From an uncultured bacterium (GTDB lineage Bacteria; Babelota; Babeliae; Babelales; Vermiphilaceae): a stretch of 64,000 nucleotides of DNA. The stretch spans positions 768,001-832,000 of the forward strand of contig OY968764.1 in the NCBI GenBank assembly GCA_963695335.1. The letters are read 5' to 3'. Below, piece by piece: positions 2,774 through 37,234 of this stretch. The notes under the pieces were generated by a model that made no database searches, was not told the origin of the DNA, and saw only the letters and a list, made by a program, of their open reading frames with translations. Numbering within the stretch: position 1 is the stretch's first letter; each line of letters starts with the position of its first letter. The position numbers were made by a program, and so were the translations under genes.

Positions 2774-2816
2774 AGTGTTCCTTATATTATGGTTTTTTTA
2801 TTTAGTATACCATATT

Positions 2817-3746
2817 TTATGTTGTTTTGATTTCATTAATTTTCAAATTCCCCTTGATGCTATGAAGCGCAATAGTCGCTTCACCAGTCCCAATGGTTCC
2901 ATCCACCTCTTTTTTGAATTTATTCCATGCAGAGCTATTCAGTTGCGTTGCATAAGGTTTGAGGGTAATAACATGATCAGACAGAAGAGTGCCATGCGTT
3001 GTGTGTCCTTTAATTTCAGCATTGGTGTCTGTTGGTAAAGCAAGGGTGATGTGTCCTGATGTTGTATTCAGATCAATAGCGCTCGTAGATGGTAATTTTT
3101 TGTAAGCGACTGAAATTTTCCCTGATGTTGAATGTGCGTTAAAGCTATGAGCTATATTTTCCCCGTTGATGTTGCCGTAATGAGTATGTGCATCAACAGG
3201 TCCAAGAGCATGAGCAATGTTGATTGTTCCTTTTTTAAGTGTGCGGGCAGATACTGTTTTTTTGCTGTTGGAGATGGTAATATTATCATTGGTGACAACA
3301 TTAATGGATCCATGAACGTTTTTTATAGACGCATCCCCGTTTTCTGACACGTTAACTGTAATATCAAGAGATGCGGGAATAATAAGTTCATATTCAACTA
3401 ATCCGACGAGTTTTTGATTGATATGTTTGGTGGTGATTGCCAGATGGTCAGTTGTGTTTGCATCAACAACAATTTTAATATGATCTAAATCTTCTTCTTT
3501 TTTTGCACGTTTTGTGGTTTTGAGAAATATTGAGTTTTTTTTCCATGTTTTGATACTGATTGGACCATTAATATTATTAATTGATATGTTATGAATTGAT
3601 GTTGTCGGTAATTCGCGTTGATCAACTTTTTCAAGTTTATAACCAGTAAGAAGCGATGTGATTTTTTGCAAAGGGGATTGCTTGTTCGTTGCGCAGAAGG
3701 ATGAGATAGTTGTTGATAAGAGTATTATATATATTGTTTTATTCAT
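2817..3746 (-). CDS. DUF4097 / putative adhesin beta-strand repeat protein, secreted
   Basis: Signal peptide; repeated T-x-x-G-x-I motifs (THYGNI, STSGKI, TTSGHI, TTHGTL, SIKGNL). Confidence 0.7.
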   Translation of the reverse strand: MNKTIYIILLSTTISSFCATNKQSPLQKITSLLTGYKLEKVDQRELPTTSIHNISINNINGPISIKTWKKNSIFLKTTKRAKKEEDLDHIKIVVDANTTDHLAITTKHINQKLVGLVEYELIIPASLDITVNVSENGDASIKNVHGSINVVTNDNITISNSKKTVSARTLKKGTINIAHALGPVDAHTHYGNINGENIAHSFNAHSTSGKISVAYKKLPSTSAIDLNTTSGHITLALPTDTNAEIKGHTTHGTLLSDHVITLKPYATQLNSSAWNKFKKEVDGTIGTGEATIALHSIKGNLKINEIKTT

Positions 3747-3838
3747 CGGGTATCCTTTTTATAAAAGTAATGTGTTTGTAATATACAAAAAATGTTGTGC
3801 TCATTCAAAGAATAGTCGTAGTGCAATCAGGAGATGAA

Positions 3839-5218
3839 ATGAAATTAGTAAGTCAGCAGTCTGAAAAGATATATGCAATTGCGCAGGCAATTGCTCAGCA
3901 CAAAGGACGTGCATTGCTTGTTGGTGGTGCGGTGCGTGATATGACAATGAATCGTCCTGTTAAAGATATAGACATAGAAGTTTATGGTCTCTCTGAACAA
4001 CAATTGGAACAATTGTTATCTCAATTTGGACCAGTGAGCTTGGTAGGTAAAGCGTTTGGAGTGCTACGTATTCATGGTCTTGATGTTGATTGGTCTTTGC
4101 CACGTGCAGATAGTCCAGGACGTAAGCCAACAGTGGTTATTGATCCGCATATGCCAATTGAGGTTGCTGCGCGTCGCAGAGATTTGACGATGAATGCAAT
4201 GGCTTTTGATCTCATGATCAATGAATTAATCGATCCGTGTGATGGAATAAGCGATATTAAACATAAGATATTGCGTACTCCTGATGCACGTTTTTTTATT
4301 CAAGATCCGTTACGTTTTTACCGTGTGATGCAATTTATTGGACGTTTTGAGATGTGCCCCGATGATGAGTTGAATACATTATGTGCGGAAATGGATATTG
4401 CACAGATTTCACGCGAGCGTATTGAAGAAGAATTTAGAAAACTGTTTTTATTTTCACGGCGCCCATCGCTTGGTATCCGTTGGTTGTATACAATTGGACG
4501 TTTACATGATGTACTGCCAGAACTTGCTGCAACTGTTGGCATTGAGCAAGAGCCAAAATGGCATCCAGAAGGCGATGTGTTTGAGCATACAATGCAGGCA
4601 ATTGATGCTGCTGTAGAATTAATAGGCAAGTATGATAATGAATTTGATAAGCTTGTTTTAGTGTACGCCGCATTGTGTCATGATTTGGGAAAAGTTACAA
4701 CAACTATTGAAGTTAATGGTGTTATTAAAAGTATTGGGCATGAAAAAGAGAGTAAAAAGTTTGCGCGTACAATGATGAAGCGTATTACGCATAATGTTGA
4801 TCTGATTAATGCGGTTTCATCGCTTGTGTTGCATCACATGACACCATTGCAGTTTATTACTAATAATGCAAAAATGCCTGCATATAAACGATTGGCAAAT
4901 AAGTTAGCTCATAATGTTAATGTACTCATGCTCATTGATCTGTGCATTGCTGATAAACGTGGCAGAAATGGAAACAGTCATGAACCTTTGACGTGTGATT
5001 TTCCTGATGTAGAACTGTTTAGAGAAAAAGTTTTGCAGGCAGGGGTTTCTACCAGTGCAGTTGAGCCATTATTAAAAGGTGTAGATCTTCTTGATGTTGT
5101 GCAGCCAGGACCAAAAATGGGGCAGTTGTTAAAATTAGCGTATGAAAAGCAGATTGATGATGGTGTTACTGATAAAGACATTTTGAAAGAGTTTGTTAGA
5201 AGAATGGTTAAAAAGTGA
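3839..5218 (+). CDS. cca: CCA tRNA nucleotidyltransferase with HD domain
   Basis: VGGAVRD, DIDIE, RRDLTMNA, DPLR, ERI, HPEGDVFEHT, HDLGK; ATG 3839 chosen after AGGAG. Confidence 0.9.
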   Translation: MKLVSQQSEKIYAIAQAIAQHKGRALLVGGAVRDMTMNRPVKDIDIEVYGLSEQQLEQLLSQFGPVSLVGKAFGVLRIHGLDVDWSLPRADSPGRKPTVVIDPHMPIEVAARRRDLTMNAMAFDLMINELIDPCDGISDIKHKILRTPDARFFIQDPLRFYRVMQFIGRFEMCPDDELNTLCAEMDIAQISRERIEEEFRKLFLFSRRPSLGIRWLYTIGRLHDVLPELAATVGIEQEPKWHPEGDVFEHTMQAIDAAVELIGKYDNEFDKLVLVYAALCHDLGKVTTTIEVNGVIKSIGHEKESKKFARTMMKRITHNVDLINAVSSLVLHHMTPLQFITNNAKMPAYKRLANKLAHNVNVLMLIDLCIADKRGRNGNSHEPLTCDFPDVELFREKVLQAGVSTSAVEPLLKGVDLLDVVQPGPKMGQLLKLAYEKQIDDGVTDKDILKEFVRRMVKK

Positions 5219-5229
5219 TATTTTTCTTA

Positions 5230-5303
5230 GTGCTCATTCTGAGCTTGTCGAAGGATATCTTTGAGCGCTCTAAGATATTCTTCGACAAGCTCAGAATGAG
5301 CAC
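5230..5303. repeat. Palindromic repeat family A doublet (intergenic)
   Basis: GTGCTCATTCTGAGCTTGTCGAAGG...CTTCGACAAGCTCAGAATGAGCAC; outer stem shows compensatory changes relative to other copies. Confidence 0.92.
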
Positions 5304-5372
5304 GGCGATAAATTGTTATGCAAAATATGAAAAAAAAGCTATAATCATGCATAAAATTTACAATATATATTA

Positions 5373-21940: not shown

Positions 21941-23350
21941 TTAGAGTAGCTCACCTGCAAGTCGACTTAATTCACTACGCTCACTGACAGGCAAGAACAC
22001 TGAACCAAACAGTGGTTGTCCTTTGAAGCGTTCACTGGCAACAACCAAACCGTTGCTTGCAAAATCAAGATATGGTGAATCAATTTGATATGGATCACCG
22101 GTTAAAATGATTTTACTTCCTTCACCAACACGCGTAACTAATGTTTTAATTTCATGCGGTGTTAAGTTTTGCGCTTCATCAATTAAAATGAGTTGATAAG
22201 GAATAGTACGCCCACGCATGTAGGTGATAGCTTCGAGTGAAATTTTGCCTTGATGAATTAAATCTTCAAAGGTAATACCGTGATGTTTTTTGTGTTTATG
22301 TTTACCTTTATGATTGTGATTATGTTTACCACCACCTTTATGACTCGGTTCATCTTCTTCTTTTGTTTCTTGAAATTTATTTGATTTGTTGATGGTGTGC
22401 ATGATGTATTGCATATTATCATAAATTGGCATCATCCAGCTTTGCAATTTTTCTGCCACAGTTCCTGGTAAAAATCCAATATCACGACCAAGTGGAACAA
22501 CAGGACGGGAAATAATCATGCGATCATAATTTTTGTTCACAAAGAGTGAATGTAATCCTGCAAGAAGCGCTAAGAATGTTTTACCGGTACCAGCTGGACC
22601 AAATAAACATGCAAATTGAATGCTCGGGTCGAGCAGAAGTTCCAAAGCCATTAACTGTTGTGCATTACGTGCTGCAATTGGCCAGTTGAGTGTTGGGTTG
22701 ACTATTGGTTTAAATTTATCACCACCAAGATAACGGAACACGCGATTATTATGTGGGTTGTTGTTGCTTTCTACTAAAACAAATTCATTTGGTGTAATTA
22801 TTTTATCTTTAGCAAGTCCGACAAGTTGTGGAGGGAAATCTTTTTTGAGTTCTACTGCAGGGACAGATATTTGTACCCATCCTTGGTAGAATACTTTTTC
22901 TGTTACTGTTTCTTTTGAATAATCTTCTGTTGCAATCCCGATAGCATCTGCCTTAACACGCGCATTAAGATCTTTAGAAATAAAGATCACATCGTACCCA
23001 TCTTGTTTCATACCAAGCGCGGTAAGTAAAATGGTGTTGTCTTCAGTTGCTGCTCTGATAAGGGGAGTTTTTTCTAATTTAGTATCATCATAAAAAAGAA
23101 TTTGGAGGGTACCTCCACCCTCCAAAGTAACTCCATCACGTAAAGATCCTCGTTCTCGTAGCTCATCGAGGGATCGTATAGTTTGGCGTGAATTACGACC
23201 GCGTTCAGTTCCCTCCCCTTTGAATTGATCAAGCTCCTCAAGAACAGTTGCTGGTATACCAACATGCGCACCATCAAAGCTGAACATTGCTTTTGGGTCA
23301 TGTATGAGAACATTGGTATCCAGAATAAAGATTTTTTTGTCTTTAGGCAT
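21941..23350 (-). CDS. PhoH-family protein (PIN domain plus PhoH ATPase)
   Basis: LDTNVLIHDP, GPAGTGKT, RGRT, IDEAQN, GDPYQID, RSELS. Confidence 0.92.
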   Translation of the reverse strand: MPKDKKIFILDTNVLIHDPKAMFSFDGAHVGIPATVLEELDQFKGEGTERGRNSRQTIRSLDELRERGSLRDGVTLEGGGTLQILFYDDTKLEKTPLIRAATEDNTILLTALGMKQDGYDVIFISKDLNARVKADAIGIATEDYSKETVTEKVFYQGWVQISVPAVELKKDFPPQLVGLAKDKIITPNEFVLVESNNNPHNNRVFRYLGGDKFKPIVNPTLNWPIAARNAQQLMALELLLDPSIQFACLFGPAGTGKTFLALLAGLHSLFVNKNYDRMIISRPVVPLGRDIGFLPGTVAEKLQSWMMPIYDNMQYIMHTINKSNKFQETKEEDEPSHKGGGKHNHNHKGKHKHKKHHGITFEDLIHQGKISLEAITYMRGRTIPYQLILIDEAQNLTPHEIKTLVTRVGEGSKIILTGDPYQIDSPYLDFASNGLVVASERFKGQPLFGSVFLPVSERSELSRLAGELL

Positions 23351-23701: not shown

Positions 23702-25405
23702 ATGCACGAAAAAGATTTATCAGTATTGCGCCATTCGGCAGCCCATCTCCTTGCACATGCAGTTAAAGAACTGTTTCCGTCAACAATTTTAACCATCGGT
23801 CCAGCAACAAAAGAAGGTTTTTTTTATGATATGTTGCCGGAAAGAAATTTTAAAGATGAAGATTTAGTTCGCATAGAAGAAAAAATGCATGAACTTTCAC
23901 GTCAAAATATTCCGCTGACGCATAAACAAATTTCAAAAGATGTTGCGCGTGAAATGTATAGTAACAATCCATTCAAACTTGAACTGATTAATGACATTCC
24001 TGGTGATACAGTAGGTCTTGCCGAGCAAGGTGATTTTTATGATCTGTGCCGCGGTGGGCATGTTGCATCAACAGGTGATATTAAGTTTTTCAAATTACTT
24101 TTCATTTCTGGTTCTTACTGGCGCGCAGATAAAGATAAACAACCGTTGCAACGTATCACCGGTACAGCATTTTTTACACAAGAAGATTTGCAAGCATTTT
24201 TACAACAACGTGAAGATGCGATTCAATTTGATCACCGGAGACTTGGTAAAGAGCTGGATCTCTTTTCATTTCATGAAGAAGGTGTTGGGTTTCCGTTTTT
24301 CCATCCACGTGGAACCATTGTTTTGAATGAATTAATGGCTCATGTCAGAAAATATTTAAGAAAAGCTCGCTATCAAGAACTTTCAACTCCCGTTATGTTG
24401 AGTGATGAATTATGGCGTAGATCTGGGCATTATCAACATTATAAAGATAATATGTATTTTTCTATGGTTGAGGGGCATTCTTATGCACTCAAACCAATGA
24501 ACTGTCCTGCAGCTATTTTGGTATATAAAGAACGCCCACATTCGTATCGTGAATTACCATTACGTTGGTCAGATTTTGGAACTTTGCATCGCCATGAACT
24601 TTCTGGAGTTTTGAGTGGACTGTTTAGAGTACGTTCATTCCGTCAAGATGACGCGCACATTTTTTGTACGCCAGAACAGATAGAAAAAGAGATCGTAGAT
24701 TTTATTGCAGTGCATGATGAAGTTCTTAAACCGTTTGGGTTTGGCAATATTGTGATAGGTGTTTCCACTCGTCCTGCAAAAGCTATGGGGAGTGATGAGT
24801 TATGGGAAGTTGCAACAAAAGCTTTGATCAATGGACTTGATAAAGCGGGAAAAACATACGCAATCTATGAAGGTGAAGGCGCGTTTTATGGGCCTAAAAT
24901 AGAGTTTGGTATTGAAGATTCATTAAAACGTGTGTGGCAATGTGGTACTATTCAAGTTGATTTCTTTCAACCGGAAAATTTTGATTTGAGTTACATTTCT
25001 CCTGAAGGTACAAAGGCACGACCAGTCATGTTGCATCGCGCAATTTATGGATCATTTGAACGTTTCTTTGGAATTATTTTAGAACATTTTAAAGGTCGTT
25101 TACCATTCTGGTTGTCACCAGTTCAGATGAAAATTTTAACAATTACTGATGAACAAAAAGAGTATGCGCACCAGATTATGAATCAGCTGTTTGATTATGG
25201 TGTGCGTGTAGAAATTGATAACTCTTCTGATCCTATTGCTGGTCAAATTAAACGTGCGCAACTTGAGCGTGTGCCGTTGATGGTTGTGATTGGTAAAAAA
25301 GAGGTGGAAAATAAAACGGTCACATTGCGTGATTTGGATGGCAAGCAAGAATTTGGAGTCAGTTTTGAAGCATTATTGCAAAAAATTGATGCGCTCAAAA
25401 TATAG
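23702..25405 (+). CDS. thrS: Threonine--tRNA ligase (no N-terminal TGS domain)
   Basis: RHSAAHLLA, DLCRGGH, DHRRLG, KPMNCP, QDDAHIF, FYGPK, HRAIYGSFERF. Confidence 0.97.
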   Translation: MHEKDLSVLRHSAAHLLAHAVKELFPSTILTIGPATKEGFFYDMLPERNFKDEDLVRIEEKMHELSRQNIPLTHKQISKDVAREMYSNNPFKLELINDIPGDTVGLAEQGDFYDLCRGGHVASTGDIKFFKLLFISGSYWRADKDKQPLQRITGTAFFTQEDLQAFLQQREDAIQFDHRRLGKELDLFSFHEEGVGFPFFHPRGTIVLNELMAHVRKYLRKARYQELSTPVMLSDELWRRSGHYQHYKDNMYFSMVEGHSYALKPMNCPAAILVYKERPHSYRELPLRWSDFGTLHRHELSGVLSGLFRVRSFRQDDAHIFCTPEQIEKEIVDFIAVHDEVLKPFGFGNIVIGVSTRPAKAMGSDELWEVATKALINGLDKAGKTYAIYEGEGAFYGPKIEFGIEDSLKRVWQCGTIQVDFFQPENFDLSYISPEGTKARPVMLHRAIYGSFERFFGIILEHFKGRLPFWLSPVQMKILTITDEQKEYAHQIMNQLFDYGVRVEIDNSSDPIAGQIKRAQLERVPLMVVIGKKEVENKTVTLRDLDGKQEFGVSFEALLQKIDALKI

Positions 25406-25460
25406 AATATGATCTGCATATCACAATCCCTTGTTATCATTATGATGGTGGCAAGGGATT

Positions 25461-26432
25461 TTATTTTTCAGCAGGCGTAATTAAATTTTTACAAACCATT
25501 TTTTGTGCAAAATAATAGTTCAATGTTTTTTGTGGTAGTGTATTATTTGCTAATGTTGTGGTGAGTGGAATTATTGCGTGATGTAGAACATCTTTATTAG
25601 TGCTACGATCGCGGTCGACTTTGTGCATAATCAGATGAGTACCTTGTTTATTAAATGCTATGGTTTCGCAAGAACCAGGAATTTTAGGAAAAATAGGGTA
25701 TTCTTTTTTTTGAGTGAGTAAGTTTTTGATTTTTATGGGAGTTTTCCATCCAATTATATTATCTATTTTTTTAAGATAGAGTATTGCATAAATGTTGCCG
25801 CAAGAAGAAATAGTCAGATTCTGAAAATATTTTTCTCGACGTTTTGTCTTATCTTTTTTGTAAGCAGAAATATTATGAATTTCTTCATTTGTTTTGGTAT
25901 TAACAATTGATAAGGTGTCAACTTTAAAGCTTTTATGAGAAACATATGTCATGGCGCACATATTTTTGTCTGGGGAATACACAGTTAAAAGGACATGAGT
26001 ACCTAAAATCGCTTTATGTTTTAGTAACCAGGTCAATGGCATAACCCTATCTTTACGAAACCTTTCTTCTGTTGGTTCTTCTGGAGAGACCTCTTCTTGA
26101 GAGTTTTCTACTTCTTTTTTGTACATTCTTATAAATATTGGTTTGGAACCTTCTGAGTCAGAACCAAAGTCCATTTCTTCTTCTTTCTCTATGACAACTG
26201 TTTTTGTTTTAGAGTAGAAAGATTTGGGGTACGATGAAGGGCCTTTTTTACGGTTAATAAATTCTTCTTCTGTTTCAACATCATCAAATGTCAAAAAGCT
26301 GGCGATATAATTCATGAGATCAGCCGGCATGTTTGCAAAAAAACATGGAGGGTTTTCTGGCTGCATGGCATTGAGGTGTGTGGAAATAGTGAGTGTGATG
26401 ATAAAGATGAATATATTGTTTTTCATGAGCAT
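25461..26432 (-). CDS. Secreted protein with F-box-like motif and WD40/beta-propeller-like segments
   Basis: Leader ending LNAMQ; FANMPADLMNYIASFL; YSPDKN, ISSCGN, AFNKQGTHL. Confidence 0.5.
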   Translation of the reverse strand: MLMKNNIFIFIITLTISTHLNAMQPENPPCFFANMPADLMNYIASFLTFDDVETEEEFINRKKGPSSYPKSFYSKTKTVVIEKEEEMDFGSDSEGSKPIFIRMYKKEVENSQEEVSPEEPTEERFRKDRVMPLTWLLKHKAILGTHVLLTVYSPDKNMCAMTYVSHKSFKVDTLSIVNTKTNEEIHNISAYKKDKTKRREKYFQNLTISSCGNIYAILYLKKIDNIIGWKTPIKIKNLLTQKKEYPIFPKIPGSCETIAFNKQGTHLIMHKVDRDRSTNKDVLHHAIIPLTTTLANNTLPQKTLNYYFAQKMVCKNLITPAEK

Positions 26433-26493
26433 TTCTTTATTATGTATTTTACATTGCCCATAAGTATAATGCTTAAATTGTCATAAAAAAAGT

Positions 26494-27363
26494 CTATTCT
26501 TGTTGCCAACTATCTTGTGCAACTAATGCTACAACCACCGGAATAGATACACCTTTTCTTTCCCACCACACAATGTATGGTTGATCAATAACAAGATTAT
26601 TGGAACAACATATAGATTCCATCAATGCAATTGCAACCGCACTTTTCACTTCAGCGCCAGTTTCATCAAGAGTAAACTTTGTTTGTTGTTTTGCTTGTTC
26701 TATGCTGTAGGTATCAAATCCCATGCCTAAAAGCCATGATACATCTGGCTGATGATCAATACATGCTTTGGGGAAAATAAGTTTGCCATTGTAATCATAT
26801 GATTCTGTGAGATCTCTTTTGATGGTGTTGACAGTATCAAGCAGTTCAAAACCACTTTGTTGTTCTGTTGCTTTGGTAAGATAAATAATGTCACCTGATT
26901 GCGTGCATAGTTGTGCAATAGGATGTTCATGGTTGGCAGATGAAAAAACTTTATACCCTTTAGAAATTTCAACACCATCATATGTTTGTCCATTATCTGG
27001 GCATAAAATAGTAGTTGGTGTTCCTGCATGCAACCATTCTGTTTTGATATCAAGTATAGATACCACACCAAAACCACGGTCGAAAGGTTCTAGGCGTATA
27101 TCAAAATCTTTGCTTGCAAGAATATTGTTAAGTTCTTCATAACTTCTTGAAGCCCATGCGCCGAGTTCATTTTGCGTGAAATGTGATAGTTCTTTGTGTG
27201 CTGGAGCATACGTGTTAATTAATGTGTGTTGCTGGTGATTGGTTGTAAAAAATTGTTGATACCATGTATCAGATATGTTTTGTGTCCCTGATGCAAAAAT
27301 GATTGATTGTGCTAATGCTTTGATGATCGGTAAGAGAGCGACTGTTTCTGTTGTCATTATCAT
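26494..27363 (-). CDS. Serpin-like protein
   Basis: C-terminal QQTKFTLDETGAEVKSAVA...LVIDQPYIVW resembles the serpin hinge and signature; upstream IFPK. Confidence 0.55.
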   Translation of the reverse strand: MIMTTETVALLPIIKALAQSIIFASGTQNISDTWYQQFFTTNHQQHTLINTYAPAHKELSHFTQNELGAWASRSYEELNNILASKDFDIRLEPFDRGFGVVSILDIKTEWLHAGTPTTILCPDNGQTYDGVEISKGYKVFSSANHEHPIAQLCTQSGDIIYLTKATEQQSGFELLDTVNTIKRDLTESYDYNGKLIFPKACIDHQPDVSWLLGMGFDTYSIEQAKQQTKFTLDETGAEVKSAVAIALMESICCSNNLVIDQPYIVWWERKGVSIPVVVALVAQDSWQQE

Positions 27364-27473
27364 GAATGTCCCTTTAACAAATAATGTTAATGTTAATTAT
27401 TCCTGTTTATATAATACCATACAGGTGAAATGGTGTCGAAAGGGGGTATTTTTGATATTTTTTCTAATGAAAA

Positions 27474-28151
27474 TTAACGATGTCGTGTAACGCCAACTTG
27501 TGGGCAGAGTGGCAGCAGCGGGCAGATTGAGCATTTGGGAGAAATGGGCACACAGATATTTTGTCCCCACATGACCATCAGTTTGTTATATTCTGACCAA
27601 TATTTTTGCGGTAACAGTTTTTTGAGCGCTTCTTCTGTTTGCTCAGGGGTTTCTGTTTTTACCAAGCCTAGGCGGTTAGAGATGCGGTGGACATGAGTAT
27701 CAACGCAGATGGCAGGGATGCCAAAGCCTTCAGCAAGGGTCAGATTGGCAGTTTTGGGCCCTACGCCGGGCAATTCGATAAGTTTTTCATACGTATTGGG
27801 GACTTTGCCATTGTACTGTTTGAGTAAGATGGTACAAATTTTTAAGATTTGTGTCGTTTTCTGGCGATAAAAGCCGGTTGGGTAGATCAATTTTTGAATG
27901 GTTGCAGGAGATAAAAGTAGTAATGCTTGCGGGGTTTGAGCATGCTCAAATAAGCGCTGTGATGCAGGTAATGAAACAGAATCTTTTGTCCGTAAACTTA
28001 AAATACAACTGACAAGAATTAAAAAAGGGTTGCGCCCGTAGAGCTCAGTGATGCTGGTTGCGGCTGGTTGAACCATGCCTTTTGTTGCATCCTGCAATAT
28101 TTCTATTATAGAAATTGCGCGTTTTTTTAAATTGTCTTGTCCTTTTGCCAC
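27474..28151 (-). CDS. nth: Endonuclease III
   Basis: LPGVGPKTA HhH, VDTHVHRI, C-x6-C-x2-C-x5-C Fe-S motif. Confidence 0.95.
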   Translation of the reverse strand: MAKGQDNLKKRAISIIEILQDATKGMVQPAATSITELYGRNPFLILVSCILSLRTKDSVSLPASQRLFEHAQTPQALLLLSPATIQKLIYPTGFYRQKTTQILKICTILLKQYNGKVPNTYEKLIELPGVGPKTANLTLAEGFGIPAICVDTHVHRISNRLGLVKTETPEQTEEALKKLLPQKYWSEYNKLMVMWGQNICVPISPKCSICPLLPLCPQVGVTRHR

Positions 28152-28207
28152 ATTACTACTCTCATTATTTGGTATAGCTGTGAAATTATGTTAGGATGAG
28201 AATTATG

Positions 28208-28288
28208 TTAGCATCCTGGAGGCATTTCTCCGAATATGAGTGCGAATGCTGCTATGATAAGTGTAGCGAAATTGAAATAGTTTTTCAT
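28208..28288 (-). CDS. Putative 26-aa small peptide MKNYFNFATLIIAAFALIFGEMPPGC (absent from the ORF track)
   Basis: Hand translation; GGAG RBS at 28297-28294 just upstream of ATG; signal-peptide-like n/h regions. Confidence 0.55.
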   Translation of the reverse strand: MKNYFNFATLIIAAFALIFGEMPPGC

Positions 28289-28371
28289 AATGACTCCAAA
28301 TAGGGTTTTTACAATTTCTTGATTAAATAAAAGAAAGTATAATAAAGCCCTTTTAAAAGCGCAATATAATT

Positions 28372-31065
28372 ATGTTTTTTTTAGAATATATAGAATCAAT
28401 CCTTGGTTCTTTTTACTTTATTTTACCAGCCACTCTTTTATCTTTTTTTCTTAAACTAGGTATTTTAATTGCTTTAGTAAGAAAAACTGCGCATATGGAA
28501 AGAGTAATTAAACCACTCTTCTTCTTGGTTGCCATTCTTATTGGTAATATGTTTTCCGATTTAGCTTGGATATTAAAATTATCACAATTACTTTTTCTAC
28601 CTCAATTGAGTTATCAGATTATTTTATTTATCATACGTTCTGCATGGATATTTTTTATGGTTCAATACCAATCCATGTCATTATTTGTAGAAAGTTTGGT
28701 GACTGATAGATATATTATTTCCCTAAGACAAAAATGTTTGGTCTTTATTAGTAGTATATTTGGTTTATTTTTTGCAATAGCAGCTATTGTTGATTTTAAT
28801 TGTATAGACCCATCCCGTAGAAAATTTAGTTTTGAGCCAACAATTCAAAATCTTGCTACATTTTATGCCTTATTTATTGTTGTGTTGCCAAGTTTGTGTA
28901 TAGCAGTGCAAAAAATTAGATCTTCCGAGTTGCCTCATTTGCTCAAAAAGCAACTTAAATTGTTAATGCAAGGTCTTATAGCGCCTGTTTTTATGGCAGA
29001 TTTAATTCAAGGGTTTCCTTTTAAGATATATGGCATTACATGGATTGCACATACTTATGCGGGCGTTGGGTTTTCCACGATCCTTATTACGTGTGCCATT
29101 TATTTCTGCGCCCGTAAAATTTTTGGATTACGTTTCTTGAATCTCAAAAACCATGTATATCAGCCGATGAATATTAATTTTATTGATGAATTTAAAGGCG
29201 TGTTAGAAAAGTTGAGTAATGTGACTAATTTGCGTGAGCTTGGTCATATTACCCAAAATTTTTGCAAAGAAACCTTTGGTATTCCTGCCAATAAAACACG
29301 TCTTTATTTAAGAAAGATGGATCCAGTTGAAGATAGTACAACATCTCTTGTAGAAACATTCTTGGTAACACATAGCGAGATCATTGAACGTGCTATGCGT
29401 AATGAAAAAGTTCTTATTTATGATGAGATCGATTTTACTCATTTTTACCATGCATGTGAAAAAAGTGAGATTATTCTGAAATTCTTGGGCACGATTAATG
29501 CCGACATTTTCTTGCCGATTTATGAGAATGAAAAACTGATAGCATACATTATTGTTGAGCGGCATGCGCGTAAGCAGCATTTTTATAGTAATGTTGAGCG
29601 TGATGAACTTATTGTTTTCGCAAGTTACCTCGGCAATATCATTAACTTATTGCAGAATAAAAATTTGGACCTTCTCCTTGAACAATCACAGCTCTTGCGT
29701 GATGAGTTGTATGGTAAACATCAAGAGATTGAGCAATATAAAGAAAGTATGCGATCATTTTTGCGTAGGCATAAAACAAAACATATTGGCATTCTGTTTT
29801 ATAAAAACAGACAATTTTCATATGGTAATCATGCCGCTAAAGAGTTGGTTGATGTTAATATTAATCAGCAGCATGGCCATCCATTGGTACAATGTTTGCG
29901 TGATTTGGTGAGGCAAGTTGAATCATTTAAAGCACCAAAGACGGTGTTTGTCAGGGACGGTAGTGATAATCAGCTTGTTGTTTCTGCAGTACCGCATTTA
30001 GAAAAAAGTACTATTATTATCACTGTTTCATACCCATCTATTGCTGACACCATCAAGCACCATGTTGATTTATTAAAAGATCCAAGCGAATGGGATTATT
30101 TGCTGTATTTGCAAACAACACAATCTGGTAAGCTGATCAATCAGCTGATTCCTGGATCGGGGCCAATATTATTGAATTTTAAGATACAGCTGCTGAAAAT
30201 TGCATTGAGTAAAAAGGCTATTTTACTCGAGATGCCTGAACAAGATTTACAGCCTATGGCGGAGATTTTGCATCATATTAGCATGCGAGACGATTTGCAT
30301 GTGATAACGTTGCAAGGCCCATCACACAATTATGATATTGCGATTACATTGTTTGGTATTAATCCAGTTTTTGGCGTGCAAGAAAAATATGGCCAACCGT
30401 TGCTGGAAAAGCTTGATAACGTTGGTACCTTATTTATAAAAAATATTCACTTCCTTGATTTGGAAACGCAAGAATGTTTGGCAACATGTATCCGGTCTGG
30501 CACGTATAATTTGTTCAAAAGCGACCAGAGAATGACAAGTAATGTGCGTATTATGTGCTCAACTAATCAGAATTTAAACGTGTTGATGCAAGAAGGTAAA
30601 TTCAGTAAGGCACTGCTCCAAGAACTTAAATCAACGGTGGTAACCATGCCTTCATTGCTCACACTTCCTGAAGATGAGTTGCTTTCTTTAACAGAAGGTT
30701 TTACACAACAGGCATTGATGTCAGATGCTTTGCAACATGTGTTAGCACTCACTGATAAAGAAAAAGATTCACTTGCTGATCATCGGCCAATCAGTTTGCA
30801 AGAGCTGAAATCTCGTATCCAGCAACTTCTTGTTAAAAAGTCTAAGAAAAATCATATCTATCAAGAAGTTGAGTTTGATCCTACGTATGATATTACCGAT
30901 CCTGGTCTTGTTGAAGCTGCACGTCTTGGTAAAAAAGCATTGCAAGAGCCACGGGTGATGGCATTGCTGTGGAATAAGTTCAAAAATCAAAATAAAATCG
31001 CATTTTTCTTGGGTGTTAATCGTTCTTCTGTTAATCGTCGCTGTAAAGAGTATAATTTAATTTAG
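28372..31065 (+). CDS. Multi-TM membrane sensor fused to GAF-like, degenerate sigma54-activator AAA+ and HTH domains
   Basis: About 7 hydrophobic helices in the first ~250 aa; IFLPIYENEKLIAYI GAF-like strands; GTLFIKNI and VRIMCSTNQNL...GKF; C-terminal NQNKIAFFLGVNRSSVNRR HTH. Confidence 0.75.
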   Translation: MFFLEYIESILGSFYFILPATLLSFFLKLGILIALVRKTAHMERVIKPLFFLVAILIGNMFSDLAWILKLSQLLFLPQLSYQIILFIIRSAWIFFMVQYQSMSLFVESLVTDRYIISLRQKCLVFISSIFGLFFAIAAIVDFNCIDPSRRKFSFEPTIQNLATFYALFIVVLPSLCIAVQKIRSSELPHLLKKQLKLLMQGLIAPVFMADLIQGFPFKIYGITWIAHTYAGVGFSTILITCAIYFCARKIFGLRFLNLKNHVYQPMNINFIDEFKGVLEKLSNVTNLRELGHITQNFCKETFGIPANKTRLYLRKMDPVEDSTTSLVETFLVTHSEIIERAMRNEKVLIYDEIDFTHFYHACEKSEIILKFLGTINADIFLPIYENEKLIAYIIVERHARKQHFYSNVERDELIVFASYLGNIINLLQNKNLDLLLEQSQLLRDELYGKHQEIEQYKESMRSFLRRHKTKHIGILFYKNRQFSYGNHAAKELVDVNINQQHGHPLVQCLRDLVRQVESFKAPKTVFVRDGSDNQLVVSAVPHLEKSTIIITVSYPSIADTIKHHVDLLKDPSEWDYLLYLQTTQSGKLINQLIPGSGPILLNFKIQLLKIALSKKAILLEMPEQDLQPMAEILHHISMRDDLHVITLQGPSHNYDIAITLFGINPVFGVQEKYGQPLLEKLDNVGTLFIKNIHFLDLETQECLATCIRSGTYNLFKSDQRMTSNVRIMCSTNQNLNVLMQEGKFSKALLQELKSTVVTMPSLLTLPEDELLSLTEGFTQQALMSDALQHVLALTDKEKDSLADHRPISLQELKSRIQQLLVKKSKKNHIYQEVEFDPTYDITDPGLVEAARLGKKALQEPRVMALLWNKFKNQNKIAFFLGVNRSSVNRRCKEYNLI

Positions 31066-31066
31066 A

Positions 31067-31237
31067 CGCTCGAAGATACCCTTCGACAGGCTCAGGGCGA
31101 GCGCCTAAAATATTGTTGTATAGATCAATAAATTTATATTTCTTAGAGTTCGTATGCTTCGACAGGCTCAGCACGAACGGGACAAGATCTATTTTCCCGC
31201 GCTCGTCCTGAACTTGTTGAAGGATATCTTCGAGCGC
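31067..31237. repeat. Cluster of three repeat-A monomers (31067-31104, 31148-31180, 31199-31237)
   Basis: CTTCGACAGGCTCAG core twice, and inverted GCGCTCGTCCTGAACTTGTTGAAGGATATCTTCGAGCGC. Confidence 0.88.
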
Positions 31238-31253
31238 TAAAAAGAGAGTAGTT

Positions 31254-32171
31254 ATGAAAAAAGAAGAATTTGAACAACATAAAGAAGCATTCTTATTACA
31301 CCTTAAAGCGGAGCGTAATTTCTCGGAACATACGCTGCGCGCTTATTTTTTAGACTTAAATCAATTTATTTCTTTTTGGTCAGACATGTCTGATTATGAT
31401 ATGCAAAATCTTGGATTGCGGCAAATCATTGAACGGTATTTAGTAGCACTGTTTTATAAAAAAATAAGTAAGACTTCCATTGCACGTAAATTTTCCTGTT
31501 TTACATCATTTGAACGTTTTCTTGAAACACGTGGCATTGAGCTTAATTTAAATTTAAAACGGCCACGTATCGATAAAAAATTACCTATCTACTTTAGTGT
31601 TGATGAACTTTGTTATCTTTTGGATGGGATTAAAAATGAATCGCTACCAACCAAATATCCCGTGCGTGATAAAACGATATTTGAACTGCTGTATGCAACC
31701 GGTGTGCGTTGTTCGGAACTGGTTAATATCTGCATTCAAGATGTTAATATGGATGAACGCACTATTCGTATCTTGGGTAAAGGAAAGCGAGAGCGGATTG
31801 TACTGTTTGGTGATAAAGCGCGTGAGAAAATTTTGTATTATTATAAAGCAGAACGGCCTGTGATACAAAATCAAGAAGAAGCACTGTTTTTGAACTATCG
31901 ATATGAAAAACTGACAACGCGTTCTGTGCAGCGCATTATCAAAATGTTTAGAGCATTTCTGCCCATAGATCGGCAACTGACACCTCATAAATTGCGTCAC
32001 TCTTTTGCCACCCATCTACTCAATCAAGGTGCTGATTTACGTGCAGTGCAAGAATTGCTTGGACATAAAACTCTTGCAACAACGGAGAAATATACGCATG
32101 TTTCTTTAGAAAAAATTTCTCAATTATGTGAAAGTGTTCATCCCATTAATAAGATGATGAAGAAGAAATAA
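31254..32171 (+). CDS. xerC: Tyrosine recombinase XerC/XerD
   Basis: SEHTLRAY, LYATGVRCSEL, GKGKRER, HKLRHSFATHLL, LLGH, TEKYTH; XerC vs XerD not resolved. Confidence 0.8.
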   Translation: MKKEEFEQHKEAFLLHLKAERNFSEHTLRAYFLDLNQFISFWSDMSDYDMQNLGLRQIIERYLVALFYKKISKTSIARKFSCFTSFERFLETRGIELNLNLKRPRIDKKLPIYFSVDELCYLLDGIKNESLPTKYPVRDKTIFELLYATGVRCSELVNICIQDVNMDERTIRILGKGKRERIVLFGDKAREKILYYYKAERPVIQNQEEALFLNYRYEKLTTRSVQRIIKMFRAFLPIDRQLTPHKLRHSFATHLLNQGADLRAVQELLGHKTLATTEKYTHVSLEKISQLCESVHPINKMMKKK

Positions 32172-32175
32172 CGGT

Positions 32176-33894
32176 ATGATGTTATCAACTGCAACGATTA
32201 ATAAAAAAAATATTATTATTTTTGCTGTGACGGCTTTGAGCTTTGGAATTATTTTTTTGCGTCTTATGTTTTTGCAAATTTATTGTGGTGAATATTTTGT
32301 ATCACGCAGTGAGAAAAACTTTATTCGATACACAACGGTTGATTCTCCGCGTGGCAGTATTCGTGATGTGAATGGTAATTTGTTAGCAACAAACCGTCCC
32401 GTAGCTGCGCTCTATTGGCAAGGGACGGGCAATAAAACTTTATCGCAAGAACAATTAGTAATTCTAAAAACAGTGGAAGATATTACCGGTACTGTGCTTA
32501 CATCAGGAGCATTATATGATGCAATTACAGCTGCTGAAAAGAAGAGAAAAAAAACAGAACTGCTCGTAGACATCGATTTTATTTGTCTGAGTAAATTAGC
32601 AGAAGCGTTTCCTAATCATGAAAATATTATTATCGATACTCATTTTAAACGGTTTTATCCGTATAATGCATGTGGAAGTCACATTGTTGGATATTTGGGT
32701 AATATGACTGCACGTACACATGGTCAGTTTGGGTTAGAAAAAATATTGAATGATGATTTGACGGGCAAAAAAGGGCTTGTGCGTAATGTGGTTAATTCAA
32801 CAGGGCAATGCATATCGCAAGAAGAGCTTGAAAGTGCTCTTATTGGAAGTGATATTCAAACAACTCTTGATATTAATATGCAAGATTTGTGCGAAAAAGT
32901 GTTTCCCGAACATTGCACAGGAAGCTTTATTTTGCTCAACCCCGCAGATGGTTCTATTGTTGCGCTTGTGTCTCGTCCTAATTTTGATCCAAATATTTTT
33001 CTTGATCCTATGTCATACCAAACATGGCAGGGATTGCAAGAAAAGAATCCATTTATTAATCGTGCCTTTGACGCAAGTTATCCTTCAGGTTCTACCTTTA
33101 AGCTTGTCACTATTAGCGCTGCACTTGAACATGGAATGATTACTGAACATGATACATGGAATTGCAAAGGGTATACGTTATTTGGCAAGCGCAAATATTG
33201 GTGTGCGCATCGAGCTGGGCATGGTGAAATAAGCATTAAAAAAGCTGTCGCGCAATCGTGTAATACACTGTTTTATGAAATAGGTAAAAAAATAGATATT
33301 GATACGCTTGCTGAGTATGCATATAAATTTGGATTAGGTAAAAAAACGAACATGCTTTTTCCAGAAAAAATGGGATTGATTCCTAACCGAGCATGGAAGT
33401 TTGATTATAAAGGTGAGCGCTGGTGGCCGGGAGAAACATTATCTGTCACCATTGGCCAAAGTTTTTTGCTCGTGACACCAATTCAAATTGCATGTATGAT
33501 TGCGAGTATTTTTAGTGGATATCTTACCGTGCCACGTTTACTTATTGATGAACCTGTTGTGTCGACTCCTTTAGAATTGAAACCAGAGACAATTAATTTT
33601 TTAAAGAAATCGATGAAAGCGGTGATTAAAAGTGGTACAGGTAAAAGTATTAAGGCGGTGAAAGATATTACGATCTATGCAAAGACAAGTACAGCGCAAA
33701 CAAGTGATATTAGTAAACGTAAACTTGATAGAAGGTATTTAGAGCATGGATGGTTTGTGGGCCATTTTCAGTATAAAGAACATGACCCACTTGTTATTGT
33801 TATTCTTGTTGAACATATTGGAACTGCGCAAGTTGCAACAACAGTTGCTAAGAATTTTTTGGTTGAATATAAGAAGTATATGAATGCTTGCTAA
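32176..33894 (+). CDS. mrdA: Penicillin-binding protein 2
   Basis: N-terminal TM, PRGSIRD..G..LA, STFK, SCN, KTS (KTG variant). Confidence 0.85.
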   Translation: MMLSTATINKKNIIIFAVTALSFGIIFLRLMFLQIYCGEYFVSRSEKNFIRYTTVDSPRGSIRDVNGNLLATNRPVAALYWQGTGNKTLSQEQLVILKTVEDITGTVLTSGALYDAITAAEKKRKKTELLVDIDFICLSKLAEAFPNHENIIIDTHFKRFYPYNACGSHIVGYLGNMTARTHGQFGLEKILNDDLTGKKGLVRNVVNSTGQCISQEELESALIGSDIQTTLDINMQDLCEKVFPEHCTGSFILLNPADGSIVALVSRPNFDPNIFLDPMSYQTWQGLQEKNPFINRAFDASYPSGSTFKLVTISAALEHGMITEHDTWNCKGYTLFGKRKYWCAHRAGHGEISIKKAVAQSCNTLFYEIGKKIDIDTLAEYAYKFGLGKKTNMLFPEKMGLIPNRAWKFDYKGERWWPGETLSVTIGQSFLLVTPIQIACMIASIFSGYLTVPRLLIDEPVVSTPLELKPETINFLKKSMKAVIKSGTGKSIKAVKDITIYAKTSTAQTSDISKRKLDRRYLEHGWFVGHFQYKEHDPLVIVILVEHIGTAQVATTVAKNFLVEYKKYMNAC

Positions 33895-33895
33895 T

Positions 33896-34903
33896 TCACT
33901 GCACCAAATAACGTCTAAAACTTGCTTCATTCCATTGATTGTACGTACATGAATGATCTGCATTTGTACCGTATCGTGTATCCTGTGTTAATATTGATGT
34001 AGAATAAATAGGCATATCCATTGGTGCTCCATAAAAGAGTGCAATGGTATAACGTTCAATAGCACCATGCGCTTTGTCTACGCGGTGTTCTGTTGCGCGA
34101 ATTGCATCATTTTTCACCAACTGTCCAAATTCTCCCACTTGAAACATCATAACATCCAAATCGTTAGCCATTATTTTTTTAAAAGGAACATCTGCAGATG
34201 TTCTGACAAAAAGCCCAGCTTCTTCTGGTTCAGTGATTTGTTCATCATTTACAAAATAAACAGCAGGAAGAACTACCGTAAATAAACCATGATCAAAATG
34301 TGCGCCACACCAATGAGGATTTTGGTTGTTTTCACTTTTGCGATAATACAACATTCTGCCGGTGCATGCATTATCTTCTAGATGTAATCCTGTAGCATCA
34401 CCCAGAAGGCCTATTTTGTACATGACCATTTCGCCCGTTTCAGCCATTAAGGTTCCTAATGTTTCAAATGGATCTTGTAAATTCACTTCATGTGGCCATT
34501 TATTGTGGGCATAGTTGGGGAGAAGTGCATAGTAAGATGTTTTTAAATCATCAACAATCCAGTTGCCATCTGTATTTTGGAATTTTTCTTTTCCTACTTC
34601 ATATCCAAGAAACGTGTCTCCAGCTTCTCTGTTTGGTTTGTATTGTTCTTTTATCTCTTCAGGTAATGCATGGAATGCTCGTGATGCGCTAATGAACTGT
34701 TCATATTTTTCTTTGTATCCAGGTACACCTCTGACCCCCACAATTCCTTTTGTATGCAAAGCATTGTGTAGTATTTCCAATGCGTGTGGATCTTCTTGTA
34801 TAAGTTGTTCGTATGAAATAATATCAAGATCGAGTATTTCTACTGTTTGCGCTGTTGCAAAACTATTGAGTAATAAAAAAGTCATCAGAAATGATCGCGA
34901 CAT
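33896..34903 (-). CDS. 2-oxoglutarate/Fe(II)-dependent oxygenase (IPNS/DIOX-like) with signal peptide
   Basis: HFD...TEHRV...RYTIALF iron and 2OG motifs. Confidence 0.82.
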   Translation of the reverse strand: MSRSFLMTFLLLNSFATAQTVEILDLDIISYEQLIQEDPHALEILHNALHTKGIVGVRGVPGYKEKYEQFISASRAFHALPEEIKEQYKPNREAGDTFLGYEVGKEKFQNTDGNWIVDDLKTSYYALLPNYAHNKWPHEVNLQDPFETLGTLMAETGEMVMYKIGLLGDATGLHLEDNACTGRMLYYRKSENNQNPHWCGAHFDHGLFTVVLPAVYFVNDEQITEPEEAGLFVRTSADVPFKKIMANDLDVMMFQVGEFGQLVKNDAIRATEHRVDKAHGAIERYTIALFYGAPMDMPIYSTSILTQDTRYGTNADHSCTYNQWNEASFRRYLVQ

Positions 34904-35578: not shown

Positions 35579-37234
35579 ATGAATAAAAAAGTTGTACTAG
35601 CTTTGCTGTGTATGAGTAGTCATTGTATTGGAATGCGTCAATTATCCTATTCTAAGTCAGGTCCTGAGCAAAAGCACGTTCGCTATCGCCGTAAAATAAC
35701 TGAGTTTTCAGGTAATGAAAAAAAATATGTTTGTACATTGTTAGATTATGTTCAGCATAATGGAGTGGGCCCTTTGCGAACATGGTTAAAAGATAAAGCT
35801 GAGAGAGCGTGCTGTGGTCCTGGTATGATGATTCCTTTGCCAGATATTTTACAGCGTGTATTGCGTCATCCATCAAGTGCACACATATTGCATGAAGCAG
35901 TGAAGCGTTGTTATTACAATTGTGCTGAATTGTTGCTTACATATAATGCCCATCCGAATGCAGTAGTAAAGGGAGGTGACACACCTCTTCATGTAGTCCG
36001 TAGCAGTGTGATAGTGCAGTTATTAATGGATCATGGTGCGTGTATAGAACAAAAAAATGATGCGGGTGAAACACCGTTTTTTAAATGTATTAAAAATTCG
36101 TGTTTAGATAGAGCGCGTATTTTGTACGACGCTGGTGCAGACGTTAATGCATATAATAAAGCTGGTAACACTCCTTTGCATTATGCAGCTAAGTATTTAA
36201 AGCAGGATGTAATACAATTTTTATTATATCGTGGGTCGAATATTGATTGTGTGAATACAGTTGGCGAAACGCCTTATCAAATTATACACAAACGTGGTGG
36301 ATCTGTTTTAAAAGCATTTCGAGAGTGGAAAAAATTTTTCCGCGTGATTAATGCTACCGCAAAAGAAAATAAATCTTTGTCGATTATGAGTTTGTTAGCT
36401 CATGATGCAAAGCAGTTAAAACATATTCTTATACACAATTCTGATGGATATTGTTCTCAGGATATAGCTATTGCTGAAAAATTATTTAATCAGTGCAGTG
36501 ATGAGGTTTGGGATGCATTAACATCTAACAGTTCTCAGGCTCATAAAAAATCTTTAATGCTTGCACGGTTTATACAAAATAGGTCTCGGCATCGAAAATG
36601 TTTTTTGGATGCATTGCGGAGTAATGATTTTCGTGAGGCTCATCATTATGTAGAAATAAATCCTCATTTGTTACATACATATGAAGGTGAGTATGAAAAA
36701 GATGAAGTTAATGCTCTTTTTGCGGATAAAGTTATTTATTCCTGCATAAATAATGATCAATATCATTATTTGCAAACAATGATGTATAGTGGCTTTTTTG
36801 ATCTTGATTATTGTGATGAATGGGGAACTCCGCTACTTTCTCTAGTTATTCAAAATGCTGATGGTGGTAGTAAATATCTTGAGCTATTAAAAGCTGGTGC
36901 GCCGGTGAATATAAAGGATAACTATGGTAGAACACCACTGTTTTATGCCGTAATACTGGAAAATAAAGATATGATATCACATTTATTATTATACGGTGCA
37001 GTTGTTAATCAAGATTTTGCTGAATTACTTAATTTGTCGGATGAAATGTGGATATTGATGAATGATGCATATGGCAAACAAAAATGTGTTAAATGCGAAA
37101 CTCATGATCATGATCTGGCTAGTATCCCTTGTGTGAATAGACACTTGGGACATTTTATTTGTAAGCATTGTTATAAGAAATGTTTTGGAAGATGTCCCAT
37201 GTGCCGACGTTCTATGGGAACGTTTGGTTTGTAA
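35579..37234 (+). CDS. Secreted ankyrin-repeat protein with C-terminal RING-like finger
   Basis: GDTPLH, GETPF, GNTPLHYA, GRTPLFYA; CVKC...PC...H..C..C...CPMCR. Confidence 0.85.
   Translation: MNKKVVLALLCMSSHCIGMRQLSYSKSGPEQKHVRYRRKITEFSGNEKKYVCTLLDYVQHNGVGPLRTWLKDKAERACCGPGMMIPLPDILQRVLRHPSSAHILHEAVKRCYYNCAELLLTYNAHPNAVVKGGDTPLHVVRSSVIVQLLMDHGACIEQKNDAGETPFFKCIKNSCLDRARILYDAGADVNAYNKAGNTPLHYAAKYLKQDVIQFLLYRGSNIDCVNTVGETPYQIIHKRGGSVLKAFREWKKFFRVINATAKENKSLSIMSLLAHDAKQLKHILIHNSDGYCSQDIAIAEKLFNQCSDEVWDALTSNSSQAHKKSLMLARFIQNRSRHRKCFLDALRSNDFREAHHYVEINPHLLHTYEGEYEKDEVNALFADKVIYSCINNDQYHYLQTMMYSGFFDLDYCDEWGTPLLSLVIQNADGGSKYLELLKAGAPVNIKDNYGRTPLFYAVILENKDMISHLLLYGAVVNQDFAELLNLSDEMWILMNDAYGKQKCVKCETHDHDLASIPCVNRHLGHFICKHCYKKCFGRCPMCRRSMGTFGL

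Follow-up and report, generated by a model that had tools for sequence, protein, structure and literature searches.

The locus described here lies in a window of 64,000 nucleotides (nt; positions 768,001 to 832,000 of contig OY968764.1, assembly GCA_963695335.1), which is the whole stretch of DNA that was analysed and derives from the closed genome (1.37 Mb, 36% G+C) of an uncultured bacterium of the Babelales. It consists of a small open reading frame (ORF) sandwiched between nth, the gene for endonuclease III, with which it shares the strand, and the divergently oriented gene of a membrane-bound regulator, P0001 (Table 1). The small ORF lies upstream of the GTG start of nth, at a distance of 56 nt in the window and of 56-70 nt, on the same strand, in the genus; beyond the 3' end of the regulator gene come a Xer-type recombinase and then PBP2. 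The initial annotation had called a gene for a 26-amino acid (aa) peptide at this place, with a GGAG ribosome-binding site and a gap of 83 bp to a divergent gene for an 897-aa protein; both the translation (MKNYFNFATLIIAAFALIFGEMPPGC) and the GGAG were reproduced here, and the spacing between the two ATG codons was likewise measured as 83 nt. As far as sequence comparison can tell, the genetic pairing of this peptide gene with the membrane regulator is well supported, and it is on this pairing that the interpretation developed below is built.

Table 1. Features of the peptide-regulator locus (window coordinates)
Feature	Position	Strand	Description
Endonuclease III gene (nth)	27474..28151	-	GTG start; HhH-GPD, expectation value (E) 7e-25; TIGR01083, 191.9 bits
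Conserved block	28168..28199		Between the stop of the small ORF and the nth start; imperfect inverted repeat
Small ORF	28208..28288	-	26 codons plus stop, ATG start; translation MKNYFNFATLIIAAFALIFGEMPPGC
Shine-Dalgarno-like GGAG	28294..28297	-	5 nt before the ATG of the small ORF
Conserved AGTATAAT	28336..28343		TATAAT on the plus strand, 28 nt before the regulator ATG
Conserved GCAATATAATT	28361..28371	+	Directly before the regulator ATG
Regulator gene (P0001)	28372..31065	+	897 aa, membrane protein
Seven-helix membrane domain	28411..29145	+	Residues 14-258; model of this domain alone: pLDDT (predicted local distance difference test) 85, pTM (predicted template modelling score) 0.83
GAF-like domain (270-428), coiled coil (432-466), PAS-like domain (473-553)	29179..30030	+	From the secondary structure of the model
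Degenerate sigma-54-activator-type AAA+ module	30085..30861	+	Residues 572-830
C-terminal helix-turn-helix	30901..31050	+	Residues 844-893, predicted; nearly invariant in the family (FLGVNRSSVNRRCK)

Homologues of the regulator were collected from Candidatus Dependentiae/Babeliales (formerly TM6), using 41 related genomes and a species-representative genome collection that yielded 166 confirmed stretches, with 73 loci kept. The regulator is present in 35 of the 41 genomes, some of which carry two or three copies. Upstream sequence was first compared at 19 loci, and 18 of them show in the same place a minus-strand ORF in which a hydrophobic stretch is followed by (D/E)-x-P-P and one to three further residues. 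When 63 distinct regulator genes were considered, a divergent ORF of 18-75 aa with Pro-Pro (PP) among its last residues was found at 54 of them, and in the same upstream regions a PP tail occurs in 55 out of 195 divergent small ORFs versus 1 out of 240 small ORFs on the regulator strand, which served as control. Eight of the nine misses have a variant ORF at the same distance, either with a single-Pro tail (WPTGC, YPGGS, TPGGR or MPGSS, all in one clade) or long and Pro-rich with two or three PP motifs. A further set of 78 distinct regulator ORFs, which retained those of at least 780 aa with an LRFLN-type motif and dropped truncated or motif-less genes, gave 65 regulators with a PP-tail divergent hydrophobic ORF; of the other 13, 3 have a single-Pro tail, 7 a hydrophobic ORF alone and 3 none of these. 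The two start codons are 60-110 nt apart in 54 of the 65 pairs (median 84 nt). The initial annotation had suggested that homologues be surveyed for a conserved divergent small ORF with a similar tail, and had named the lack of one as a refutation of its reading; the survey gave the opposite result, since such an ORF accompanies most homologues, paralogues with different neighbours included.

Regulator paralogues that lack nth as a neighbour also own a peptide ORF. Four of these (L025, L026, L027 and L034) are second tandem copies, L029 is a dispersed third copy, and L038 and L040 are distant members of the family. Since paralogous pairs with other neighbours keep the peptide gene, its partner is, on this comparative evidence, the regulator and not nth. 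The peptide ORF of L025 points toward the 3' end of the other regulator copy and therefore has nothing downstream to control.

Some loci of the survey depart from the common arrangement in other ways. At the last of the first 19 loci (L007, G008:C1:575209-580926, same genus) an indel frameshift puts the tail, GDAPPGC, in another frame; the regulator of this genome has four in-frame stops and its nth is split, a state that could be either joint decay of the locus or the product of an error-prone assembly. Two tandem small ORFs precede a single regulator in L108 (1170-1342). The regulator match in L094, which belongs to a metagenome-assembled genome labelled Acidobacteriaceae, is 3.8 kb long (1501-5317) where about 2.7 kb is usual; insertion, fusion or wrong binning may account for this.

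Several properties of the small ORF itself are those of a coding sequence. A Shine-Dalgarno-like motif is found at positions -16 to -4 in 58 of 65 family ORFs versus 497 of 5293 (9%) other small ORFs from the same loci. Within the genus the Pro residues are constant and their codons differ (CCT, CCA, CCG), as do the codons for Gly and Asp, and throughout the peptide family the reading frame is maintained across length changes (20-64 aa, median 33). On the strength of its recurrence beside homologues, its own Shine-Dalgarno motif, the synonymous variation of the Pro codons and the kept frame, we conclude from the sequences that the small ORF is a real and presumably translated gene. Sequencing runs were searched as well; those listed comprise ten DNA runs with small shares and no RNA run. 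The genome contains 20,686 ORFs of 18-80 aa, of which 83 have PP followed by one to three residues at their end; six of these 83 are hydrophobic, and only the small ORF at 28208-28288 overlaps no ORF of at least 120 aa. The scan of these 20,686 ORFs retrieved no second, regulator-unlinked intergenic copy of a PP-tail hydrophobic ORF. Searches of the peptide family against Pfam and NCBIfam returned no fitting family, with scattered matches at E>0.02 in one or two of 39 peptides, and a public protein collection contains 4 of 10 peptides looked up, all four nameless.

The peptide of the window can be laid out as MKNYFNFATLIIAAFALIFG followed by EMPPGC, that is, a basic N-terminal end, a hydrophobic core of about 16 residues and the tail E-M-P-P-G-C. 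An alignment anchored on the PP shows five aliphatic positions from -4 to -8 and an E/D at -2 in 27 of 55 peptides, and the stop codon comes one or two residues after the PP in 43 of the 55. The only invariant residues in a MAFFT alignment of 39 peptides are M1 and the two Pro; the hydrophobic part is kept in character and variable in both sequence and length. D/E is found two or three residues before the PP in 41 of 78 peptides (the acid class), the others having R, Q or none. Within this class (n=41) the tail, counted from the acidic residue, has 6 residues in 23 peptides and 7 in 9; it is preceded by G/A/S/T/C in 31, and seven peptides have a leader of exactly 20 aa, the shortest observed. 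In the peptide family the first 10 residues carry a mean net charge of +1.35 and the last 8 one of -0.37. In some cases the tail is repeated within one ORF: SVFPPIS-SVFPPIS in L105, TWPPIL-SVFPPIL in L104, two GGPPG in L089 and three PP motifs in L030. The pattern fits an N-in/C-out leader that would display or release a tail of 5-7 residues, because the leader varies freely, a short C-terminal unit is conserved and this unit is sometimes multiplied. Signal peptidase I, which is encoded in the genome under study, follows a rule of small residues at -3 and -1; here the -3 position is aliphatic (L/I/V in 33 of 41) and not small, unlike in the Sec signal-peptide rule, and cleavage before the acidic residue would be compatible with the residues found at -1.

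The initial annotation had described the divergent protein as bearing about seven membrane helices, a GAF-like region, a coiled coil, a sigma-54-activator-like AAA+ domain and a C-terminal helix-turn-helix (HTH). A full-length AlphaFold model (pLDDT 75) bears out this architecture in outline, but the label 'sigma-54-activator-like' has to be amended, since the motifs for ATPase activity and for sigma-54 contact are lost. The GAF_2 match of the regulator is below threshold (E 0.014, 16 bits versus a cut-off of 28.6), and the second alpha/beta domain (473-553) can be called PAS-like from its fold pattern in the model, which is the sole basis of this label. The AAA+ part is matched by PF00158 (Sigma54_activat; E 2.2e-10, 40.9 bits versus a cut-off of 20.2), with an alignment restricted to profile positions 38-165, and its Foldseek matches are NtrX, PspF, NtrC4, DmpR, FlrC, FleQ and VpsR; NtrX (5m7n) is the best, and the NtrX, PspF and NtrC4 matches have E between 1e-8 and 1e-7. 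Walker A is replaced by LLEMPEQDL in P0001 (LLEMPExDL in the family), GAFTGA by FGINPVFG (FGINPxFG in the family) and Walker B by GTLFIKNI (LFIKNI), KN, QN or EN being commonest after the GTLF-type motif. None of 92 full-length representatives has DE after the GTLF-type motif, and neither these 92 nor 116 full-length near homologues contain a GxxxxGK[ST] or GAFTGA-like motif. The DNA-binding domain of sigma-54 (Sigma54_DBD, PF04552) was found in none of the 41 genomes, the closed genome of this organism included, while control genomes were matched. Because the ATPase and sigma-54-contact motifs are lost and sigma-54 was not found in the lineage, the AAA+ module, judged by its sequence, is a dead scaffold and the regulator cannot be a sigma-54 activator; by analogy with TyrR, NtrX and VpsR it presumably works with the housekeeping sigma factor. 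The putative HTH is a helical tail in the model (844-893); the HTH_8 match is below threshold (E 0.096, 12.9 bits versus a cut-off of 22), and NCBIfam alignments to NtrX, TyrR and AtoC extend to residues 892-896.

The transmembrane (TM) domain has no match in Pfam, where even at E<=10 nothing consistent appears. A VIA-align structural search with this domain returned as its best 50 of 48,161 chains exclusively proteins of the G protein-coupled receptor (GPCR) fold, with Z scores from 15.7 (the TRH receptor, root-mean-square deviation 4.3 over 234 residues) to 13.8 and sequence identities of 4-12%; in the model, then, the arrangement of the seven helices is GPCR-like. The side set as cytoplasmic by the C-terminal domains carries 16 K/R residues versus 5 on the opposite side, which fits an N-out/C-in orientation. 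A profile of the TM domain retrieved 396 representatives at E<=0.001 among 1.84 billion proteins; the best 150 of these include 92 of at least 850 aa and one above 1000 aa, the rest being fragment-like, and by this distribution the domain is private to the architecture of about 900 aa. A lead from the ESM Atlas (score 0.91) toward HisKA_7TM was not borne out by a hidden Markov model search, which matched 0 of 56 TM domains at E<=10; Pfam likewise revealed no HisKA or HATPase_c domain in P0001.

In the intergenic region the octamer AGTATAAT is invariant in all nine loci of the genus. Read in the direction of the small ORF it is TATACT and stands about 45 nt upstream of the ATG of that ORF. Across the family AGTATA is found in 44 of 73 upstream regions where shuffles give 7.0, and the TATAAT occurrences are concentrated between -40 and -31 relative to the regulator ATG. 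From these positions we infer a shared, overlapping -10 core that would serve as a bidirectional promoter of both genes, whose expression would therefore be coupled. No Shine-Dalgarno-like motif precedes the regulator ATG; (G/T)CAATA occupies this place across the family, often as AAGATCAATA or ATAGCAATA, and 36 of 46 occurrences of CAATA lie within 20 nt of the regulator ATG. An enrichment analysis of k-mers in the 73 upstream regions recovered AGTATAAT and (G/T)CAATA and no evident palindromic operator, gapped palindromes not having been searched systematically. In relatives the block between the small ORF and nth contains the inverted repeat TAGCAT-N7-ATGCTA, and it may be the promoter of nth or an RNA hairpin.

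The tails of the peptides are distributed in an ordered way among the regulators. On a FastTree tree of the 78 regulators, which has local support values only and two long branches, tail types cluster, and the label 'basic at -2' changes 4 times versus 7.7 in shuffles. One clade unites L085 and L049 with the second regulator copies (L021, L025, L026, L027 and L034) from five genomes that belong to one family; its tails are throughout of the R-[WYFM]-PP type except that of L049 (WPPPP-type), and the first copies in those five genomes have acidic or neutral tails. Inside each clade the tail type persists over long branches. Such clustering alone is no proof of specificity, because linked genes are inherited together. 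The receptors of the basic-tail clade share an acidic insertion of about 10 residues in extracellular loop 2, which gives at most a hint of a charge complement to the basic tails. Co-folding was done with the pair of a relative (L004, TM domain plus 36-aa peptide), as the 26-aa peptide of the window is shorter than the 30 residues advised for the tool, and its score of 0.02 against a mark of 0.32 says nothing either way.

The likeliest of the readings considered, to which we assign a probability of roughly 0.45, is that the extracytoplasmic tail of the peptide, released or tethered, serves as the ligand of the seven-helix domain. With its basic N-terminal end and hydrophobic core the peptide would enter the membrane N-in/C-out, in the manner of a Sec-type leader. 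Cleavage by signal peptidase I before the acidic residue would then release a peptide of 5-7 residues, here EMPPGC, into the periplasm, or the tail would remain tethered. In either case the (D/E)-x-P-P-x-x tail would dock on the outward face of the seven-helix bundle, and the signal would run through the GAF-like domain, the coiled coil, the PAS-like domain and the dead AAA+ scaffold to the HTH, which, with the housekeeping sigma factor, would act on the bidirectional promoter core AGTATAAT (feedback) and on further targets. A small released peptide could build up in a closed compartment such as the host vacuole and so report confinement or density. The complete scenario, i.e. a secreted (D/E)xPPxx hexapeptide read by a GPCR-fold receptor that is itself the transcription factor, existing in some genomes as duplicated, orthogonal pairs and timing the developmental cycle of an obligate intracellular parasite by confinement or density, is more doubtful, and we offer it as a tentative proposal.

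Several observations weigh against this reading of the tail as a ligand. The canonical PP-tail ORF is missing, by the filter used, at 13 of 78 regulators, and the upstream region of L098 shows no such ORF at all, this being the only one of the nine misses noted above that is fully empty. A phylogenetically controlled scan of tail class (acidic or not) against receptor columns gave nothing beyond chance in 294 tests; the best co-variation column, the aromatic position 215, scored 6.3 same versus 0 opposite (14 independent pairs, 294 tests). The acidic insertion in extracellular loop 2 is absent from a second basic-tail lineage, L078/L080. Regarding export, a small -1 residue is present in only 31 of the 41 acid-class peptides and a polar c-region is absent; moreover, several peptides of the basic-tail clade (L034, L085, L021) are without clear hydrophobicity, and for those Sec export is therefore doubtful. 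On the receptor side, Z scores near 14 are reached by helical bundles through arrangement alone, and Foldseek returned for the TM domain a single match at E<=0.001 (best E 9e-4, TM-score 0.55), for which reasons homology to GPCRs is not claimed. Finally, as regards the -10 reading of AGTATAAT, a simple sigma-70 consensus scan of 28050-28450 detected no promoter-like site and no terminator.

Two other explanations, both of which we consider unlikely, compete with the ligand reading. The first is that the peptide is not cleaved and stays in the membrane as a single-pass micro-protein modulating the regulator by intramembrane helix-helix contact, in the manner of MgrB, a small membrane protein acting on PhoQ. 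The shortness of the peptide, its hydrophobicity, its positive N-terminal end and its strict linkage to a polytopic membrane protein would all be expected of such a protein, and a classical A-x-A cleavage site is lacking along with the polar c-region. However, it is the hydrophobic segment that varies in length and sequence and the extramembrane tail that is conserved, the tandem tail repeats (L104, L105, L089 and L030) are easier to reconcile with display or release of the motif than with helix packing, and some basic-tail peptides are not clearly membrane-spanning.

With a similarly small chance, the small ORF would be merely a target or co-regulated neighbour of the regulator, and the peptide would act elsewhere, for instance on the envelope or the host, and would not bind the regulator. 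Bacteria often have regulator genes that diverge from their targets, the conserved AGTATAAT core lies between both start codons as a shared element, and the contact between peptide and regulator is a proposal only. Yet each of the paralogous regulators has retained a peptide gene of its own, with a tail typical of the clade, which is expected of cognate pairs and less so of a generic effector, and unlinked copies are absent from the organism's own genome.

Ribosomes pause at Pro-Pro, a pause relieved by EF-P, and the small ORF could thus be a cis-acting leader in which pausing at the PP near the stop controls nth or the overlapping promoter. The nearness of the PP to the stop (one or two residues in 43 of 55) and the place of the ORF upstream of nth on the same strand (56-70 nt in the genus) speak for it, but there are paralogue pairs with no downstream gene in that orientation (L025), one clade has single-Pro tails (YPGGS, TPGGR, MPGSS), the conserved acidic residue and the hydrophobic leader are left unexplained, and the block between the ORF and nth could be the own promoter of nth, all of which makes this explanation very improbable. 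In its narrower form, as a leader peptide for nth, it was rejected on account of the paralogue pairs without nth. That the small ORF is a chance reading frame in intergenic DNA, as its mere 26 codons and the 136 ORFs of at least 20 aa overlapping 25000-34000 might suggest, we regard as already refuted by the comparative data, given its recurrence at 65 of 78 homologous loci against backgrounds of at most 0.4%, the Shine-Dalgarno motif and the synonymous codon variation, and we leave it practically no credit.

Among known systems, the layout of the locus recalls the Rgg/SHP systems of streptococci, which are of the RRNPP type, and PrgX/iCF10 of enterococci, a parallel case of a divergent peptide-regulator pair. 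In Rgg/SHP systems a short hydrophobic peptide (SHP) gene of about 20-35 aa diverges from that of the regulator, and the active part of the peptide is its C-terminal end, which starts at a conserved Asp/Glu and differs there between groups (PMC13361665). The arrangement is shared with the Dependentiae (65 of 78 regulators, median distance 84 nt), and the conserved acidic residue may find a counterpart in the D/E that 41 of 78 Dependentiae peptides carry two or three residues before the PP. Rgg is, however, a cytoplasmic protein of the tetratricopeptide repeat (TPR) type with an N-terminal HTH, whereas a seven-helix membrane protein with a C-terminal HTH is found here, and no TPR or Rgg match was obtained for P0001 in Pfam or NCBIfam. 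Rgg/SHP signalling also uses export (PptAB), processing (Eep) and re-import (Opp), the SHP tail is an aliphatic run in place of the P-P found here, and the hosts are Firmicutes as opposed to Dependentiae, which are diderm.

The regulator can be likened as well to the atypical enhancer-binding proteins NtrX, VpsR and TyrR, which combine an AAA+ fold of the bacterial enhancer-binding protein family with a C-terminal HTH, lack GAFTGA and are sigma-54-independent; many of the homologues bear the Joint Genome Institute (JGI) name 'regulator of aromatic amino acid metabolism', a TyrR-type label. In contrast to those soluble proteins, several of which still bind ATP, the present family has an N-terminal seven-helix domain and has lost Walker A and Walker B completely. 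AgrC, ComD and ComP resemble it in that the gene of a multi-helix membrane sensor adjoins a small peptide precursor gene. They are polytopic histidine kinases with a separate response regulator and a dedicated processing/export gene, whereas Pfam shows no kinase domain in P0001, whose chain itself carries the DNA-binding domain and whose gene has nth, a Xer-type recombinase and PBP2 for neighbours. ToxR, CadC and BcrR also unite a membrane span and DNA binding in one protein, with one to four helices and an N-terminal DNA-binding domain; neither a seven-helix bundle nor a dead AAA+ module nor a paired peptide gene is known from any of them. The receptor architecture, with seven-helix bundle, dead AAA+ scaffold and HTH on one chain, has no known characterised member, and our literature search, which left subscription journals mostly outside, found no paper on the regulator family or the peptide, nor on Dependentiae together with sigma-54.

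Other genes of the region are noted here for completeness. Two proteins of 323 and 289 aa encoded on the minus strand between thrS and nth (25461-26432 and 26494-27363) are matched by neither Pfam nor NCBIfam at E<=0.01. Further out are a PIN-PhoH (PhoH2-type) protein (21941-23350, minus strand) and a 2-oxoglutarate (2OG)-Fe(II) oxygenase-like protein (33896-34903, minus strand). A 551-aa protein (35579-37234, plus strand) combines several ankyrin repeats (Ank_2, E 4e-28) with a C-terminal RING-type zinc finger whose match is below threshold (zf-C3HC4_3, E 1e-4, 22.4 bits versus a cut-off of 27), and on its sequence it looks like a candidate eukaryote-like effector of the E3-ligase type.

The Dependentiae are widespread and live as obligate parasites in protists; their genomes measure about 1 Mb and encode very few regulators. 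The Chromulinavorax genome paper names as regulators only merR, yebC and fmdB, and quorum-sensing mechanisms are stated there to be absent (PMC6561590). Because regulators are so few and the module occurs in 35 of the 41 genomes, the regulator-peptide module is a prime candidate for the reading of the environment in these bacteria. Our findings also bear on annotation: the database label 'sigma-54-interacting regulator' is corrected by the loss of the sigma-54 motifs, and a small-protein family without a name is added, of which current annotation captures only a part (the 4 of 10 peptides mentioned above). If the peptide is indeed the ligand, peptide signalling would extend beyond the Firmicutes paradigm, and intracellular parasites would possess a peptide-sensing switch made of one protein.

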